The position numbers are program-made. A stretch of 40,976 nucleotides of DNA from Candidatus Micrarchaeia archaeon (GTDB lineage Archaea > Micrarchaeota > Micrarchaeia > Anstonellales > J096): positions 1-40,976 of the forward strand of contig JBGQMY010000009.1 in assembly GCA_041500865.1 (NCBI GenBank). The letters run 5' to 3'. This document shows, one piece after another, positions 1 to 18,000 of this stretch. Each line of letters begins with the position of its first letter. The first letter of the stretch is position 1.

Positions 1-3000
1 CAACAGGCTCGCCATGCCTTTTGCCGCGGATTATCTTCCTTATCAGGTCAAATATGAAGTGCATCTGCCTTCCGTCAGTGTGGTAATGGGGCCCATAAAG
101 CGTTGAAGGGATGAACTGCATGTATTTCAGCCCATATTGCTTGTTGAGGGCAATCAGGCCGGCATACAGCATCCTCTTTGTCATCGCATAGGTGAACAGG
201 CTCTCTATCGGGATTCCTTTCAGGTAGTTTTCCTCCTTTAGCTCATATGACGGGTCGTATGAGCAGCTTGTGCCCATCGCAACAAGCTTTGCCTGCGGCT
301 GCTCCCTTGCCCAATAGTCCAGAATGTTGGTGTTTATCCTCTGGTTTATGACCCACTGCTCCCCGCTGTGATACAGGCAGAAATCGCCTGCCTGGGTCCA
401 TGCCGCCAGATGGTATATCATGTCGAACTTTCCTTTCTGCTTCCCGAACGCGGACTCTATGGAGCCCTGCTTTGTCAGGTCGCATGTCTTTGAGCTTATC
501 TTCTCGATGCTGTGACCATCCTTCTCCAGCTTGGAGCACAGTGGCGTTCCAAGGAAACCCGTTGCGCCAGTCACAAGGATTTTCATGTCAGCTCTCCTCC
601 TTCGGGTCTACGGGAAAATAAAACTCAACGCCCTTTTCTACCAGTTCCCGGTTCTTGGCCAGTATCTCCTTTTTGAAATTCCATGCCAGCACGTAGTATA
701 TGTCCGGCTGCCTTTCCAGGTTCTTTTCAAGCACTATCGGTATGTGCATGCCAGGCGAGTATAGGCCTTCCCTGAGCGGGTTTATCTCCACAAGGCAGTC
801 CAGGTACTGCGTGCCTATGCCGAAGTAGTTGAGCAGTGTGTTGCCCTTCACAGGGGCGCCCATGCCGTATATCGTCTTTCCATTCTTTTTTGCGTCGTCA
901 AGGTACGCTATGTTCTTGCGCTTTGCCTCCTTTATCTTTTCTGCAAAGGCCCTATAAGTTTCAATCTCATTGGTTTTTGCCTCGCGCTCCTTGCGGACAA
1001 GCTCCAGCAGCCTTCCAGACTTTGGCCTCTTGCCGGTGTGCGAGGCGAATCCCATGACAGAGCCGCCATGGATGGGCGCCACGTAAGCGTCAAACAGGGA
1101 CAGGCTGTGCCTGTTAAGCAGGTTCTCTAGCGTCTCAAGCGTATAATAGAGCAGATGCTCGTGGTATATCTGGTCAAATGCCAAATTTTCAATGACGTTC
1201 TTCATGTATATGAACTGCACGACAAAAACGCCGTCATCCTTGAGCGCCTCGGATATAGCCTCAGATACGGAATGAAGCTCCTCCAGATGGAAGAATATGC
1301 CTGATGCGTTTATTACGTCAAACTTTTTGCCTATTTTTCTTCCTGTTTCCAGGTTGAAAAACGCATGCATAGTCGTTATTCCGGCATTGTTCGCCATCTC
1401 CGCAACCCTTTTGGATGACTCCACGCCCAGCACGTCATAGCCGAGCGCCTTGTAATGCTTCAGCTGCGTCCCGTCGTTTGAGCCTATGTCCAATACCGAC
1501 TTTTCCTTCTTTCCGCTGAAAAACCTGCCATCAACCTCGTCTGCGAGCCTCCTGAAATGGTCGCCAAGGGTCTTTGTCATCCCCGACAGGTAGGTGTGGT
1601 CGGAGAACATCACCTCCTTTTTCACGGTGTAGTCAAGCTGCGCTGCCCTGCAGTCCCTGCAGTAGACCACGCGGAGAGGGTAGAACGGCTCCTTCCCAAC
1701 CTGCTCCTTTGCCAAAAAATTGTTGCCCCATGGCTGGCTGCCAAGGTCTATCACCGGCTCTAGGTTGCGAGAAGAGCAAATCCTGCATTCCATTGCCAAT
1801 AACTGGTGCGCATAGCATTTAAAAGTTTGCTTAGGCCGGATTTTGCTCCTCGCCCCAGCTGCCCGTCTTGACAAACTCCATGTATTTCCTTATGGCGTCC
1901 CTGCTTTTTGGGACAGCCGTGAACCTGCAGACCTTGGATATGTTGGCATCATACGTTTCGCGCGGCTGCTCGTACAGCGCCATCTCGAGGCTCTTTCCTG
2001 CCATTTCCGCTATTTCCTCGCCGCTGACCGTTCCGTCGCCGCACAGGTTGAACGTCTCGTTCTCAGTGCCCTGGCCCGCCAGCATGTCTTCCATGACCCT
2101 TGCCACGGACGGGGTGTCGATGTACTGGTATTTGGAAAGCGGGGAAACGAACGTCTTGCCTGTATGCACTATGTCATAAACCAGGTTTTTCTTCAGGTTG
2201 GGCCCGACCATGTTGCCGAGCCTGAATATTAGATAGTTTTTTGCATACCTTTTGACAAGCCTCTCGGCCATGCACTTGTCGAAGCCGTAGTTTGAGAGGT
2301 ATTTCCCCTCTATCTCCGCGTCCTCCCTGTTCCTGTCCTGGTCCTCATGGTCGTTGTAAACCGCGATGCTGGACACATAGACGTATTTACGGAACGTAAA
2401 ATCCGAAAGCGTGTCCATGACTGAGCTTACGTTCATGCCAAAGTCCGCCTTTGGGTCGGAGTCAGCGAGCCTCTTTATGGAGTTTCCGTTGGCATTTATG
2501 AGGATGTCAAAATCCTTTGGCGTCTCTGCATAGTTTTCCTTTGATATGCCAATAACGCCGTAAGGGTATTTTGTCCAGAAGTATGCGTATATCGCCGAGC
2601 CCAAGAACCCGTTATATCCGATTATCCCGATTTTCATAGTCCCGCCTTTTTCATTTCATTTTATCATTTCTTCTCAGCAACAATCAAAATTTCGCCCATG
2701 CAGGTGGCGTAACGGACAGGCCGCCTCAGGATGGCCGATTTAAAAAATCTCAGGACGTTTATGAGATGGATTTTTGCGTAGGATGCGGAGAACAGGAGAT
2801 ACCTGAAAAAGGCAATCCCTGACACCGCGTACATGAATCTGAAATAGGACAATTTGGCGTTGTTGAAAAAAGAAAGAAGCGGTTTGCTGCCTGAAAACAG
2901 CCTGCGGATGCGGGGCTCAAATGGCAGCCGCGGTACCCAGTAGAATCTTTTGAGGACCGGCGTGAAACCGGAACGCTGCAATGAATCGGAAAGCAGCTCA

Positions 3001-15000: not shown

Positions 15001-18000
15001 GGACGTCCTTTCAAAAATCGCGTCACAAGGCGGGCTTTACGGCTTCAGGGGGAAAGGCAAGCTGTTTGACATAGGCAGGCCCGAGCGGCTTGAGCTGTTC
15101 AGGAACTTCATGAAGGAAAAGGGCAAAAGGAAGGCAGTGCTGATAGACAGGGACGGGACGATAATGGAGCATGTTCACTACATCAACGACCCGGACAGGG
15201 TTGTCATCAGGGAGCTTGTCGTTGAAAAGCTCAAAGCGTTCCGTGATGCGGGCTACATGGTTATCATGGTCTCCAACCAGAGCGGGATAAAAAAAGGCCT
15301 GATAACAAAGGAGCAGCATGACGCGGTCATGCAAAGGATGGACGAGCTGCTGGCCGAGAAGGGCCTGGAGCTGGACGACGTGCTCTTCTGCTTCTCAACG
15401 GACAAGGACAACGACCCAAGGCGCAAGCCAAGCCCTGGCATGATTTTTGAGGCGAGGGACAAGTACGGCCTTGACCTTTCGCAGTGCGTCATGGTCGGGG
15501 ACAGGGAAGACGTTGACATGGAGGCTGGCAGGCGCGCAGGCATCGGAAGGTGCTACCTTGTTGATGATTTCGTCAAAAGCGCAAAACCCTAATGTTTATT
15601 AAGTTTTCAGCGCAACTAGCAACCATGATAAGGATTTACTACATAGCTTCAGAGAAGTTCAAGGACGCGAAAAAGCTGCTGGAGGAGAATCCTTATGCAG
15701 AGGACAGCTTCGCGCATGCGGGATACACGCTCAAGGACGCCAAGGACTACGGCTTCAAGGCATCCGGCTACTACATTTACGTGGACAGCGACGAGGCGTT
15801 CATAAAAAAGGCGGATGCCAAGCTCAAGGGCATGGCGGATGTCGTTGAAGGCAAGGAGCTTGAAGGCGTAAAGGCCAAGATAGACGAGGAGCAGAGCAAC
15901 GCCATAAGCGGCTTCGGGTCGATATTCGGCTGATGGCGGCTATGCCTTCATGCCCAGATATTCCTTTTTTGTCATTTTTGCGCCTCTTATGCAGGAATTT
16001 ATTATGACATTCTGCTGCCTTGACCATTCCCTGTCGCTGTGGCTAAGGACATATTTGGACCATAGGTCAACGAACTTTAGTCTCTCTTTTTGGTTTTCCT
16101 CAATAAATCCCATCAATTGATTTCATCAGCCTTAGCTTTAAATCCCTTTGGGATAATTAGAATATCGTGACAGAAGAACAGGAAACAAGGAAGATTGCTT
16201 CGAGAGGCATACCGTCCAAAGAGTCCATCTACCTTCCGGCGCACAACAGCCCGGAGGTAAGGCGCTTCCAGGACGACAACGAGAACGGGACAAGGAACGT
16301 CTGGCAGCTGGCAGAGATTGTAAATTTTGTCTTCCCGTCCAAATACCAGAGGGTATACAACGATATTGCGCTGAAGTTCATGTCAAAGGTCATAAGCAAG
16401 CTGGAGCTGGACTCAGAGGGCATAACCGGGTTCGTGAAGGAAAGCGGCGTGTCCAAGGCAACATTCTACAACAGGATACTGCCCAGGCTCAGGCGCGTGG
16501 GCATGATAAAGCTGGAGCGCGAGATTGAAAGCGATTTGAAGGCGACCAAGAAAAGGAGGAAGATGAGGATTTCGCTGAGCAAGACATTCGGAAACTATTT
16601 TTCAAAGATAGGGGAAAGCTGGCTTGCGTTGGTTGACGACGCAAGGAGCTCAACTGAGCAGGAAAAGCAAAGACGGCTGTAATTCATTTCTTGTGGTTAT
16701 GGCCTTTCAGCTTGCCGGCCATCTCCTTTGACTCGCTGGCTATCTTCTTCAGCCGCGACTTCTTCTGGGCGATTTCTTCCCCTATCTTCGCCTCGCCTTC
16801 GGCAATCTCAGATAGCCGTTGGTCTATCTTGGTTGACGTCCTCTCAAGCTCCCCGAGGTACGACTCTATGGCCCTTGCGCTGGCCTTCTCGTCTATGTCC
16901 CTTATCTCGGATTCCGCCTTTGTGACAAGCCGCCTTATGTCGTCCGTTTCCTTCATGTAGGACTCAAGGTACCTGTCCAGCTTGGCCTCAAGCTTCCCGG
17001 TCTCCTCTATCTCCTTTTTCAATGACTCCACTTCAGCTTTTTTCCCTGAAACGGCCTTCCTTGCCTTTGAAACCCCTGTGAGGAACTCGTCCCTCTTTCC
17101 GTTTATGGCGTTTACCGCAGAAAGCGCATCCTCAAGCTGTTTGTTGATTGCTGCTGCGCTTTCCTTGATGGATTCCGCCTTCCTTTCAGTGTCCTTCCTT
17201 GCCTTCTCAACGAGCGAATACGTGTCTTCAAGCGCCGAAAGCCTTTCCTGGTCCTGCATAAGCTCGGCCTCAAGCTCGGTTATGCCCTTTTCCATGTCCC
17301 TGTTCTTTTTCCTGGTCTCGTCCTTGAGCCCCCTAAGCACGGAATCCAGCTTCATGTACGCGCCGCTTGCCTCGTCCACAAGCTCCTTCGCCATCCTGCC
17401 CCTCTGGCTCACGTGCGACGCTATCTCCTCTGCGCCCTTCAGGTCCTTCCTGAGCCCGTTTATCCTCTTTTGCAGGGCAGCGACCTTTTCCACTATGCCA
17501 TTGACTTTTTCTTCGCCGTACCTTTCAAGCTGCGGCAGTTCGGCGTTGAGCTTGCCCTGCTTGGCCTCAAGCTCCTTTATGCCGTTGCCCAGCGTTTCCG
17601 CCTCTTCAGCGTATTCCGCCATCTTCTCCCTTATCTTCGCGAATGAGGCCTCTGCCTTTGATTCCTTTGCCGGCGCAGGCGCTCCCTCATCATGCTGCGC
17701 CCTCTTTGGCATCCTGTTGTCCTGGGATATCTCGTGCGCCCTTCCCCTCTCGTGCCTGCGCTCCTCTTCCCTGGCAGCAGGCATTTCCACCTCTGCTATC
17801 GCCTCTTCCGCGGTCTCCTTTGCCTGCCCTTCGCTGACATACGGCAGGCCAGCAGCCTTGCTGCCGCCCAGGTCAAGAAGCCACACCGCAAAAATCTTGG
17901 TCAGCTTGTATTCCAATTTTAAGTAGCCCTCGTCCTCAAGTACAAGCAGCCATTTCTTTATCTTCTTCTTGTCAATCCCAACCTGTTTGGCAAGCTCGTC

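Follow-up and report, generated by a model that had tools for sequence, protein, structure and literature searches.

The gene island and its extent

What sugar, if any, would be made by the tailoring and activation genes that open a contig of a tiny symbiotic archaeon of the order Anstonellales (Micrarchaeota)? We estimate at about 0.72 the probability that the 40,976-nucleotide stretch of DNA analyzed here (hereafter, the window) starts inside a surface-glycan gene island that encodes a route to a nucleotide-activated heptose, oxidation of this sugar at C4 and its further tailoring. This reading is based on homology, on the conservation of motifs and synteny, and on evidence of purifying selection; all functions, substrates and products, the nucleotide and the acceptor are predictions from homology. 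The island was noticed in a first-pass annotation, and the observation itself is confirmed: ORF calls, Pfam and NCBIfam locate the genes where they had been reported, with the reported domains, and bear out the count of five further SDRs and three further methyltransferases. The accompanying interpretation is borne out in part: judged by homology, its functional side stands, and the label "Campylobacter-type", the view of such sugars as bacterial so far, the SPASM "remnant" and the intact glycosyltransferase do not. The caveat that the island might be larger, given that the contig starts in the middle of a gene, was right: the reading frame of the leftmost SDR runs on into contig C33 through a 10-bp overlap, and the island continues on C33 and C20, for a total length of approximately 27 kb over three contigs.

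Core genes of the predicted heptose route

As claimed previously, the four activities of a complete route from sedoheptulose 7-phosphate to a nucleotide-heptose are encoded, judging by homology, by GmhA, HddA and a fused HddC-GmhB. GmhA, the putative sedoheptulose-7-phosphate isomerase (4581..5141, plus strand; SIS_2; PDB 1tk9, E 3.9e-44), in which the catalytic motifs GNGGSAADAQHLAGE and RIQECHIFIVH are intact compared to 1tk9, would produce D-glycero-D-manno-heptose 7-phosphate. The predicted heptose-7-phosphate kinase of the HddA type (5138..6178, minus strand), a GHMP kinase with the solved relatives 3k85 (E 2e-56), 4n3o and WcbL (4usk), would yield the alpha-1,7-bisphosphate. The fusion protein (14465..15592, plus strand) consists of an HddC-like nucleotidyltransferase (residues 1-215, NTP-transferase domain; HddC 6jq8, E 2.8e-20) and a GmhB-like heptose-1,7-bisphosphate phosphatase (residues 220-375, HAD-IIIA domain; GmhB 2o2x, E 2.6e-23, and 3l8e, E 2.7e-19); the alignment contains GGLATRLG along with the HAD motifs DRDGT, NQSG, RKP and GD(x)3D, and the C-terminal HAD domain would remove the 7-phosphate. 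The stop of the fusion gene overlaps by one base the start of a gene for a 113-aa protein (15592..15933, plus strand) that has no assigned family and no match in Pfam or NCBIfam; its counterpart in the genome G157, from the same genus, is 86% identical and occupies the same position, with a dN/dS of 0.07.

Each of the four core proteins falls short of its curated NCBIfam cut-off, which counts against the heptose reading: the scores are 189.5 bits (cut-off 209.45) for GmhA with TIGR00441, 233 (600) for HddA with its best family, NF049969, 120.7 (178) for GmhB and 62.5 (300) for HddC. Because the HddC match is weak, GDP is suggested as the nucleotide mainly by the downstream enzymes, whose relatives are specific for GDP.

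Minus-strand tailoring genes

A run of minus-strand genes extends from position 4578 down to position 2. The first of these encodes an SDR similar over its full length to the GDP-heptose C4 dehydrogenase Cj1427 (hereafter C4DH; 3505..4578; PDB 6vo6, E 1.1e-96), with a likely start at 4494 that gives 329 aa, compared with 329-332 aa in close relatives; this enzyme would oxidize C4 of the heptose. It is followed by a class I SAM methyltransferase (2664..3494; Methyltransf_23, 38 bits) and a short SDR (1831..2637; Pfam Epimerase, 47 bits; weak PDB matches) that retains GxxGxxG and YxxxK and is a conserved member of the core; these two would act at some of the tailoring steps. A putative NDP-sugar 3-C-methyltransferase (CMT; 588..1874, likely start 1793; Methyltransf_13, 80 bits; Methyltransf_14, 168 bits) is of the TylC3/TcaB9 type (PDB 4rv9, E 8e-69; TcaB9 3ndi, E 8e-55) and would methylate C3 of the 4-keto sugar. 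The truncated leftmost gene (2..586) encodes the N-terminal 195 aa of a GDP-L-fucose-synthase-like (Fcl-like) SDR, with the remainder on C33; for this SDR, GDP-fucose synthase is the top NCBIfam match (Pfam Epimerase, 118.6 bits), as it is the top match of the full-length G157 ortholog (4b8w, E 1.7e-30); this candidate 3,5-epimerase/4-reductase would reduce C4 and possibly also epimerize the sugar. The window contains no cupin epimerase, which counts against the proposed route; an RmlC equivalog is located on C20, approximately 9 kb to the left of the window.

The CMT and the Fcl-like reductase might instead act on GDP-4-keto-6-deoxymannose, producing a 6-deoxy-3-C-methyl-hexose similar to virenose or evalose, with the heptose route being a separate neighbor. 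A GDP-linked route to virenose (6-deoxy-3-C-methyl-D-gulose) has been proposed (PMC3204966, PMC5843353), 6-deoxy sugars are the substrates of all solved CMT relatives, and, because the G157 island includes a strong GMD (474.6 bits), the pair could act on a 6-deoxyhexose in that organism. However, no GMD was detected in the genome to which the window belongs (tblastn, E <= 1e-20), and the pair shares a strand run with C4DH. Furthermore, the combination C4DH-HddC-(GmhA)-HddA-CMT occurs in nine bacterial loci with an orthologous CMT, joined by Fcl in seven; within 6 kb, C4DH is present in all nine, an HddC-like gene in eight and GMD in none. We consider a 6-deoxyhexose product unlikely.

The CMT and the reductase together are 60-68% identical, and the reductase by itself 61-68% identical, to bacterial genes adjacent to C4DH/HddA, and the CMT is nested within bacterial orthologs in the tree; because these relatives belong to the same kind of operon, transfer of the pair between bacteria and the archaeal lineage is suggested, with an undescribed C-methyl-heptose as the possible product.

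The variable plus-strand segment

The plus-strand run at 6306-15933 is a variable segment. Besides a glycosyltransferase, it encodes a BtrN-like radical-SAM enzyme, two methyltransferases and three SDRs, of which two are HldD-like; together, these proteins would add variety to the heptose and transfer it. Its first gene, an MTAP-APRT fusion (6060..7643, likely start 6306; TIGR01694, 278.8 bits, and TIGR01090, 217.9 bits, both above the cut-off), is probably a housekeeping gene and was not detected in the 20-kb locus of G157 that carries the island. The SDRs are an extended GalE/4,6-dehydratase-like protein (8800..9714; Pfam Epimerase, 180.8 bits; about 157 bits each with the galE and dTDP-glucose dehydratase models, below the cut-off), a homolog of the heptose 6-epimerase HldD (9716..10624; TIGR02197, 234.5 bits, cut-off 274.6; PDB 3sxp, E 8.8e-52) and a second HldD-like protein (10690..11613; TIGR02197, 150 bits) with YPMER in place of YxxxK. 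The methyltransferases belong to class I (12610..13410; Methyltransf_23 and Methyltransf_11) and to the FkbM family (13544..14431; TIGR01444, 74.7 bits, exceeding the cut-off, 37.7).

Two genes of this segment are turned off in the present assembly by single-base frameshifts in homopolymers, which counts against the main reading. The GT4-type glycosyltransferase (7663..8803; Glycos_transf_1, 72 bits in the C-terminal part) had been listed as intact; it is present in full length, but a +1 frameshift at the A5 tract 8007-8011 breaks it in two, with the GT1-type C-terminal half at 7922-8803, and its two parts are collinear with a single 400-aa ORF of the genome G063. In sequencing run X3, one contig is shorter by one A, which restores the frame. 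Likewise, the small radical-SAM/SPASM gene of the BtrN-like fold family (11630..12524), previously described as a remnant, is a whole gene, with the Radical_SAM and SPASM domains in two frames (11630-12163 and 12015-12524), broken by one base in the G12 tract 12121-12132, the sole G/C run of at least 10 in the 1.04-Mb genome. An intact 283-aa paralog is encoded on C33, and its predicted structure (pLDDT 92) most closely matches BtrN (4m7t; E 6.6e-10, TM 0.62/0.70).

Conservation, substrate supply and host

Orthologs of HddA (at least 50% identity) are present in 19 of the 175 other genomes of the order, and the core recurs in these 19. In the 14 loci of the order that were examined, the short SDR (adjacent to C4DH in 11), the Fcl-like SDR and C4DH face HddA and GmhA, with the HddC-GmhB fusion nearby. 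In the species-genome collection, C4DH has no fewer than 597 relatives within its family, from numerous bacterial phyla as well as several lineages of DPANN archaea, so that "Campylobacter-type" is too narrow a description; HddA, GmhA or HddC lies within 6 kb at 60 of 80 loci. All bacterial relatives are 44-52% identical to the C4DH of the window, and in the tree Micrarchaeota, together with one woesearchaeal sequence, are on their own side (99 SH-aLRT). This type of heptose pathway is known from bacteria and common in such archaea.

Transketolase, transaldolase, Rpe and RpiA are all missing from the 92%-complete genome, as previously reported (for the last two, under the names ribulose-phosphate epimerase and ribose-5-phosphate isomerase), which counts against the proposed route. 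Conceivably, then, the cell cannot make sedoheptulose 7-phosphate, and the GmhA- and HddA-like enzymes use another sugar phosphate or another nucleotide activates the sugar, a possibility with which the sub-threshold scores of the core proteins and the weak HddC match are also compatible. Against this, the top-scoring families and the best-matching solved structures are those of heptose enzymes throughout, the GmhA motifs are preserved, the island contains the two HldD-like genes, and the orthologous clusters of families f2, f3 and f12 are found in genomes that do encode transketolase and transaldolase, each in 16 of the 19 carriers; a different substrate or nucleotide appears improbable.

Even less probable is a decaying island, a relic with no substrate supply. 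The two frameshifts, the missing pentose-phosphate enzymes and the presence of the cluster in just 2 of the 18 members of family f1 would fit such decay, but none of the core ORFs is interrupted, the two frameshifts fall in homopolymers, one with the frame-restoring variant in another run, and the dN/dS values between the window genome and G157 for C4DH, GmhA, HddA, HddC-GmhB, CMT and the short SDR (0.07-0.16) are similar to that for L10e (0.125). Despite the lack of the four pentose-phosphate enzymes, purifying selection acts on the heptose genes. Finally, misassembly or mis-binning of bacterial DNA, which the bacterial affinity of the CMT/reductase pair and the drop in GC content to 0.45-0.48 at 10-14 kb might suggest, is very improbable given that the island is contiguous with the archaeal genes for L10e, an intein-bearing MCM, S8e, Nre, ELP3 and ValRS on one contig, that the linkage of L10e to HddC-GmhB, HddA, GmhA, C4DH and the CMT is seen again in G157, that the nearest relatives of C4DH and HddA are micrarchaeal, and that Logan contigs of run X1, perhaps the source sample, match 7600-10579 and 12122-12600 without differences.

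With regard to the destination of the glycan, STT3/AglB was not found, so that an N-glycan is unsupported.

Comparison with known systems

The island appears to encode the same four activities as the known GmhA/HddA/GmhB/HddC route, whose enzymes are its best solved relatives. The differences are that the phosphatase and the nucleotidyltransferase are fused, that the scores are below the equivalog cut-offs and that the host is a DPANN archaeon lacking the pentose-phosphate route; the fusion architecture is itself common in sequence databases, where a threshold of E <= 1e-10 gives 1327 relatives, including many from bacteria.

In the tailoring of the Campylobacter jejuni capsule heptose, as outlined in PMC10680097, the C4 dehydrogenase Cj1427 is accompanied by cupin C3/C5 epimerases and GFS-like C4 reductases. 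The window resembles this system in having a Cj1427 homolog followed by a GFS-like SDR and in combining conserved synthesis genes with variable tailoring genes; in contrast, it has no cupin epimerase, and it has in addition the 3-C-methyltransferase, the two HldD-like SDRs and the radical-SAM enzyme. The CMT shares its three-domain architecture and strong similarity with TylC3 of the mycarose pathway (4rv9), TcaB9 (3ndi), KijD1-type enzymes (5t64) and the enzyme of the GDP-virenose route proposed for Coxiella burnetii and would methylate next to a 4-keto group; however, the known members use dTDP- or GDP-6-deoxy sugars, whereas the heptose C4 dehydrogenase is the sole 4-keto-forming enzyme found in the window genome. 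Among the matches of the model of the radical-SAM paralog, besides BtrN, are SpeY and DesII; all three belong to the small radical-SAM enzymes with carbohydrate substrates that they oxidize. Sequence identity is 12-17%, and the copy in the window is itself frameshifted.

Contrary to the earlier description of such sugars as studied so far in bacterial capsules and LPS, the Thermoplasma acidophilum N-glycan contains heptose (PMC11407970), and functional archaeal NDP-beta-heptose enzymes are reported by Tang et al. 2024, according to a commentary (PMC11461863). The archaeon described here would thus join others that use or make heptoses. For T. acidophilum, the cited account gives a glycan structure without a pathway; the archaeal NDP-beta-heptose enzymes are, as the commentary presents them, of the HldE type and form the beta-anomer (ADP/CDP/UDP), whereas the island would lead, through an HddA-type kinase, to the alpha-anomer, followed by oxidation at C4.

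Gene content and extent of the island

The ORF list and the matches in Pfam, NCBIfam and PDB place the genes where the first-pass annotation had put them, and its reading as a heptose pathway is upheld by homology. The minus strand carries a GDP-fucose-synthase-like (Fcl-like) SDR truncated by the contig start (2-586), a three-domain sugar C-methyltransferase (CMT, 588-1874), a short SDR (1831-2637), a SAM methyltransferase (2664-3494) and an extended SDR, the Cj1427-like C4 dehydrogenase (C4DH, 3505-4578). GmhA (4581-5141, plus strand) and the HddA-type GHMP kinase (5138-6178, minus strand) follow and then, on the plus strand, an MTAP-APRT fusion (ORF 6060-7643, also given as 6306-7643), the C-terminal half of a GT1-type glycosyltransferase (7922-8803), three SDRs (8800-9714, 9716-10624 and 10690-11613), radical-SAM and SPASM pieces in different frames (11630-12163 and 12015-12524), two methyltransferases (12610-13410 and 13544-14431), the NTP-transferase/HAD-IIIA fusion HddC-GmhB (14465-15592) and a 113-aa protein without a family (15592-15933).

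The remainder of the window encodes L10e, an intein-bearing MCM, S8e, Nre, ELP3, ValRS and DUF63, which marks the contig as archaeal. The intein, which carries a LAGLIDADG endonuclease domain, splits the MCM helicase (1192 aa, 20603-24181, minus strand). A 463-aa coiled-coil protein (16684-18075, minus strand), encoded between L10e and the island, has weak SMC/Rad50-like matches and a 56% identical counterpart in G157, a genome of the same genus. Three small ankyrin-repeat proteins are encoded within 15 kb (20100-20579, minus strand; 32022-32474, plus strand; 35144-35551, minus strand), which is unusual for archaea. The MTAP-APRT gene lies 20 bp upstream of the split glycosyltransferase; we rejected a specific role for it in salvaging 5'-deoxyadenosine from the radical-SAM enzymes because both of its halves are ordinary equivalogs, scoring above the respective cut-offs, and it was not found in the 20-kb G157 locus that holds the island.

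The earlier suspicion that the island exceeds the window was borne out: G157 proteins map onto two more contigs of the same genome, C33 and C20. Exact 10-bp overlaps connect the end of C33 with the start of the present contig, C9, and the reverse-complemented start of C20 with the start of C33, and the reading frame of the Fcl-like protein crosses the C33/C9 junction; the overlaps thus allow the order rc(C20)-C33-C9. The added 4.2 kb and ~7.7 kb (C33, C20) bring the glycan island to ~27 kb in all and contain the remainder of the Fcl-like gene, two GT1-type genes, two GT2-like proteins, an intact 283-aa radical-SAM/SPASM paralog, a GDSL-like protein, an RmlC equivalog (207 bits, cut-off 155.75), an RmlD-like SDR, one more SDR, a glucose-1-phosphate cytidylyltransferase-like gene, a second NTP-transferase and a methyltransferase. 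Beyond this part, genes for Type IV pilus/archaellum ATPases are found.

Enzymes of heptose synthesis

For each core protein, the best solved relatives are heptose enzymes themselves. GmhA is most similar to TIGR00441 (189.5 bits vs a cut-off of 209.45) and matches the Campylobacter jejuni protein 1tk9 with an E-value of 3.9e-44; alignment with 1tk9 and 2xbl shows that GNGGSAADAQH..E, TSG.S.N and RIQE.H....H are kept, so that the SIS fold is combined with the active-site motifs of a sedoheptulose-7-phosphate isomerase. For the HddA-type kinase, NF049969 is far ahead as the best family (233 bits, the runner-up scoring 98; cut-off 600 bits), and the four top PDB matches are heptose kinases, including 3k85, 4n3o and 4usk (E-values of 2e-56 to 1e-49); phosphorylation at C1 and the alpha anomer are predicted for this enzyme by homology. 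Residues 3-208 of the fusion match HddC (6jq8, E-value of 2.8e-20) and contain the GGxxTRL motif, this half scoring 62.5 bits with the HddC model (cut-off 300) and 72.9 bits with a mannose-1-phosphate guanylyltransferase model. Residues 223-368 match the GmhB-type phosphatases 2o2x and 3l8e; the HAD-IIIA models TIGR01662 (102.9 bits, cut-off 44.6) and TIGR01656 (116, cut-off 84.15) are passed, scores with the GmhB models, 120.7 and 98.1 bits, stay under the cut-offs (178 for the former), and alignment to 2o2x reveals the HAD motifs expected of a HAD-IIIA 7-phosphatase. The fusion architecture is common, with 1327 relatives at E <= 1e-10, many of them bacterial and named HAD-IIIA hydrolase or heptose bisphosphate phosphatase. 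Because none of the four core proteins (GmhA, HddA, GmhB, HddC) attains its NCBIfam curated cut-off, we infer the nucleotide, GDP, chiefly from the downstream enzymes, whose relatives are GDP-specific.

Tailoring enzymes

The C4DH is similar over its full length to Cj1427 (6vo6, E-value of 1.1e-96, residues 45-357) and contains the SDR motifs GGAGYLG and YGRSK. In PMC10680097, our source for the reference GDP-heptose chemistry, Cj1427 is described as an enzyme with tightly bound NAD(H) that is recycled by alpha-ketoglutarate in a ping-pong manner. The CMT combines the Zn-binding N-terminal domain, the SAM domain and the C-terminal Methyltransf_14 domain of the TylC3/TcaB9 type (PF08421, 80 bits, cut-off 31.3; PF13489, 55.6, cut-off 27; PF08484, 168.3, cut-off 23.5) and matches the 3-C-methyltransferases of the mycarose (4rv9), TcaB9 and KijD1 type with E-values of 8e-69 to 7e-53. 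The full-length G157 ortholog of the truncated SDR at 2-586 matches GDP-fucose synthases (E-value of 1.7e-30). The SDR at 9716-10624 scores 234.5 bits with TIGR02197 (HldD; cut-off 274.6) and matches Helicobacter pylori HldD (3sxp, E-value of 8.8e-52); the one at 10690-11613 scores 150.3 bits against the same cut-off and has YPMER in place of the catalytic YxxxK.

The intact radical-SAM paralog on C33 belongs to a family of 365 small radical-SAM/SPASM proteins (E <= 1e-10) in which CxxxCxxC and five C-terminal cysteines are conserved. The closest match of its structure model (pLDDT 92, pTM 0.90) is BtrN (E-value of 6.6e-10), followed by anSME, EpeE, DesII, BlsE and SpeY; BtrN is the top match by sequence too, albeit a weak one (E-value of 0.016). 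That the enzyme oxidises or epimerises a sugar hydroxyl by radical chemistry would be no more than a reasonable guess. For the radical-SAM gene of the window, the 176 Anstonellales genomes contain only paralogs of 44-49% identity and no ortholog.

Genes interrupted at homopolymer tracts

Two genes that had been described as a SPASM remnant and an intact glycosyltransferase turned out to be whole genes interrupted by frame changes. In the radical-SAM/SPASM gene, the frame changes exactly at a G12 tract (12121-12132), and removal of one G yields a continuous 297-aa protein. This tract is the sole run of G or C of at least 10 in the 1.04-Mb genome, where only three such runs reach 8; contig C30 ends with a G9 run. 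The N-terminal third of the glycosyltransferase (ATG 7663 to 8006), for which no Pfam match was obtained, lies in the other frame; the N-terminal part aligns to residues 3-124 and the C-terminal part to residues 127-389 of a single 400-aa ORF from genome G063, indicating one gene split at an A5 run (8007-8011). As in phase-variable loci, a homopolymer within an ORF sets the frame at G12 and likewise at A5.

In Logan contigs from four sediment runs, the A5 form was seen in run X1, possibly the source sample, and one 171-nt contig from run X3 has one A less, which restores the frame; at a depth of 2.3, this contig may reflect an error. Around the G12 tract, X1 contigs end at 12123 or begin at 12122, those of runs X2 and X3 begin at 12147 and 12149, and none in the four runs spans 12121-12132. 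Two pattern scans of metagenome contigs for the G12 flanks gave 0 and 8 matches, all 8 being unrelated chance matches, and there was no RNA dataset among the 6 runs that contain the stretch.

Conservation within Anstonellales

HddA-like proteins (E <= 1e-20) are encoded in 45 of the 176 genomes of the order, the present one included, and orthologs with at least 50% identity in 19 others (18 full-length, one fragment) from families f1 (that of the present genome), f2, f3 and f12. In the 14 loci that were retrieved, a core recurs in which the short SDR, the Fcl-like SDR and the C4DH are oriented divergently to HddA and GmhA, the HddC-GmhB fusion lying a few kb away; the C4DH is adjacent to GDP-heptose synthesis genes in the window, and likewise in 13 of these loci (none in L018, only part in L026). 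The G157 locus runs from L10e through the coiled-coil gene, two unknowns, HddC-GmhB, HddA, GmhA, C4DH, the short SDR, CMT and an HldD-like SDR to GMD (the 4-keto-6-deoxymannose-forming alternative), glycosyltransferases and a radical-SAM gene, so that the linkage of the island to housekeeping genes is reproduced in a second assembly. Compared with G157, the window carries a variable insert at 6.3-14.4 kb; the GC minimum (0.45-0.48 at 10000-14000 vs 0.50-0.58 around) coincides with the part that has no counterpart there. The dN/dS ratios between the two genomes, rough because dS is near 1, are 0.07-0.16 for C4DH, GmhA, HddA, HddC-GmhB, CMT and the short SDR, and 0.125 for L10e.

Spread of the C4 dehydrogenase and the associated module

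The label "Campylobacter-type" does not fit the C4DH family, which is represented in many bacterial phyla and several DPANN lineages. The best 120 relatives show 53-98% identity and, where named, come under generic product names from Micrarchaeota, Anstonellales, Bilamarchaeaceae, Aenigmatarchaeota and 'uncultured archaeon'. Species genomes hold at least 597 relatives, and the best 80, from which neighbourhoods were taken, include Micrarchaeota, Woesearchaeota (58%), Nanoarchaeota/Pacearchaeota (~50%) and bacteria of many phyla (44-52%). A quick tree of 92 rows puts 17 Micrarchaeota and the Woesearchaeota row on one side (support 99) and 72 bacteria with a Nanoarchaeota/Pacearchaeota pair on the other. 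Of the 80 best C4DH relatives, 60 have one or more of three heptose genes within 6 kb, HddA-like genes lying there in 48 cases, HddC-like ones in 51 and GmhA in 17, which demonstrates a genomic association of the C4DH with GDP-heptose synthesis.

Orthologs of the CMT with 60-65% identity are present in nine bacterial loci (two each from Bdellovibrionota, Chlamydiota, Pseudomonadota and unclassified genomes, one from Kiritimatiellota), of which seven also encode the Fcl-like SDR (61-68% identity), with the operon order C4DH-HddC-(GmhA)-HddA-CMT-Fcl. GMD was found neither in these nine loci nor in the present genome. Compared with the window, the same bacteria show merely 26-34% identity for HddA and 44-50% for C4DH. 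When 18 methyltransferases were placed on a tree, leaving out the duplicate L035, the orthologs from three archaeal genomes (the present one, G157 and G042) formed one clade (97/97) nested among the bacterial orthologs (87/96), and other C-methyltransferases of Micrarchaeota are distant paralogs. On the simplest reading, an archaeal heptose core later acquired a bacterial methylation/reduction pair that would act on the 4-keto-heptose.

Precursor supply and destination of the glycan

The previously reported gap in the pentose phosphate pathway was confirmed by profile search, which detected no Transket_pyr, TAL_FSA, Rpe or RpiA in the genome and, for Transketolase_N, nothing besides one 15.5-bit chance match. 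Of the 176 Anstonellales genomes, 149 encode transketolase and 134 transaldolase; in family f1, each enzyme is limited to 3 of 18 genomes. Transketolase is encoded by 16 of the 19 other carriers of HddA orthologs, and transaldolase likewise by 16; neither is present in G157, G147 or the present genome, so three f1 genomes keep selected heptose genes without a known route to sedoheptulose 7-phosphate. The obvious guess would be that they take it up from a host. Seven genomes of the order (G143:C11, G144:C3, G034:C6, G028:C2, G035:C29, G031:C11 and G014:C2) carry a second copy of transaldolase/FSA (profile positions 1-244) at a distance of 1-5 kb from a 31-37% identical HddA-like kinase, which points to a different heptose-type cassette carrying its own transaldolase.

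With regard to the destination, PF02516 (STT3/AglB) had no match at E <= 0.001 in this 92%-complete genome and matched all four archaeal controls; an island of AglB-dependent N-glycosylation is therefore not supported. One Wzx-type flippase is encoded on contig C18, and the acceptor may be a protein, a lipid or a polymer.

A candidate route and its relation to known systems

Taken together, we tentatively propose, with a probability of roughly 0.3, that the C4DH/CMT/Fcl-like run is a conserved module in which the three enzymes would produce GDP-3-C-methyl-heptose, a branched seven-carbon sugar. The CMT/Fcl-like pair would have passed from bacteria to Micrarchaeota, the module being shared with Bdellovibrionota, Chlamydiota, Kiritimatiellota and Pseudomonadota; in this lineage without the pentose phosphate route, the host would supply the sedoheptulose 7-phosphate from which the sugar is made; and its decoration may be switched by the G12 tract and the A-run, which lie in the radical-SAM and the glycosyltransferase gene, respectively.

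What merits experiment is the C4DH/3-C-methyltransferase/reductase module, the missing supply of sedoheptulose 7-phosphate and the two putative homopolymer switches. A small enzyme set for a possible new branched heptose is now defined and can be tested in vitro; given that several bacterial phyla share the module, a single experiment would serve to annotate many genomes. Selected heptose genes without a route to sedoheptulose 7-phosphate offer a concrete, testable case of dependence on a host metabolite. DPANN envelopes mediate host attachment and, to our knowledge, their chemistry is almost unknown; a well-supported, widely conserved nucleotide-heptose pathway is hereby added to the surface-glycan repertoire of these archaea.

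The first-pass annotation overstated the novelty in treating heptose as a sugar class so far studied in bacterial capsules and LPS, given that it is known from an archaeal glycan. A review (PMC11407970) places heptose in the N-glycan of Thermoplasma acidophilum, and functional NDP-beta-heptose enzymes in archaea were described by Tang et al. 2024, according to a commentary (PMC11461863). In PMC7725333, GDP-linked heptoses are classed as rare and most rare sugars as absent from its 303 archaeal genomes. Of the literature found on heptose in Micrarchaeota and DPANN, one paper mentions a heptose glucuronosyltransferase KO for Parvarchaeota; the papers found on GDP-heptose and archaea are, by title, microbiome pathway listings, and a search with hddA/hddC and archaea gave nothing relevant. 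The pathway type is already known, and the island is not a new kind of system. We found no description of a C-methyl-heptose in the literature; the nearest known GDP-linked case is virenose, a methyltransferase being involved in its proposed route as well.
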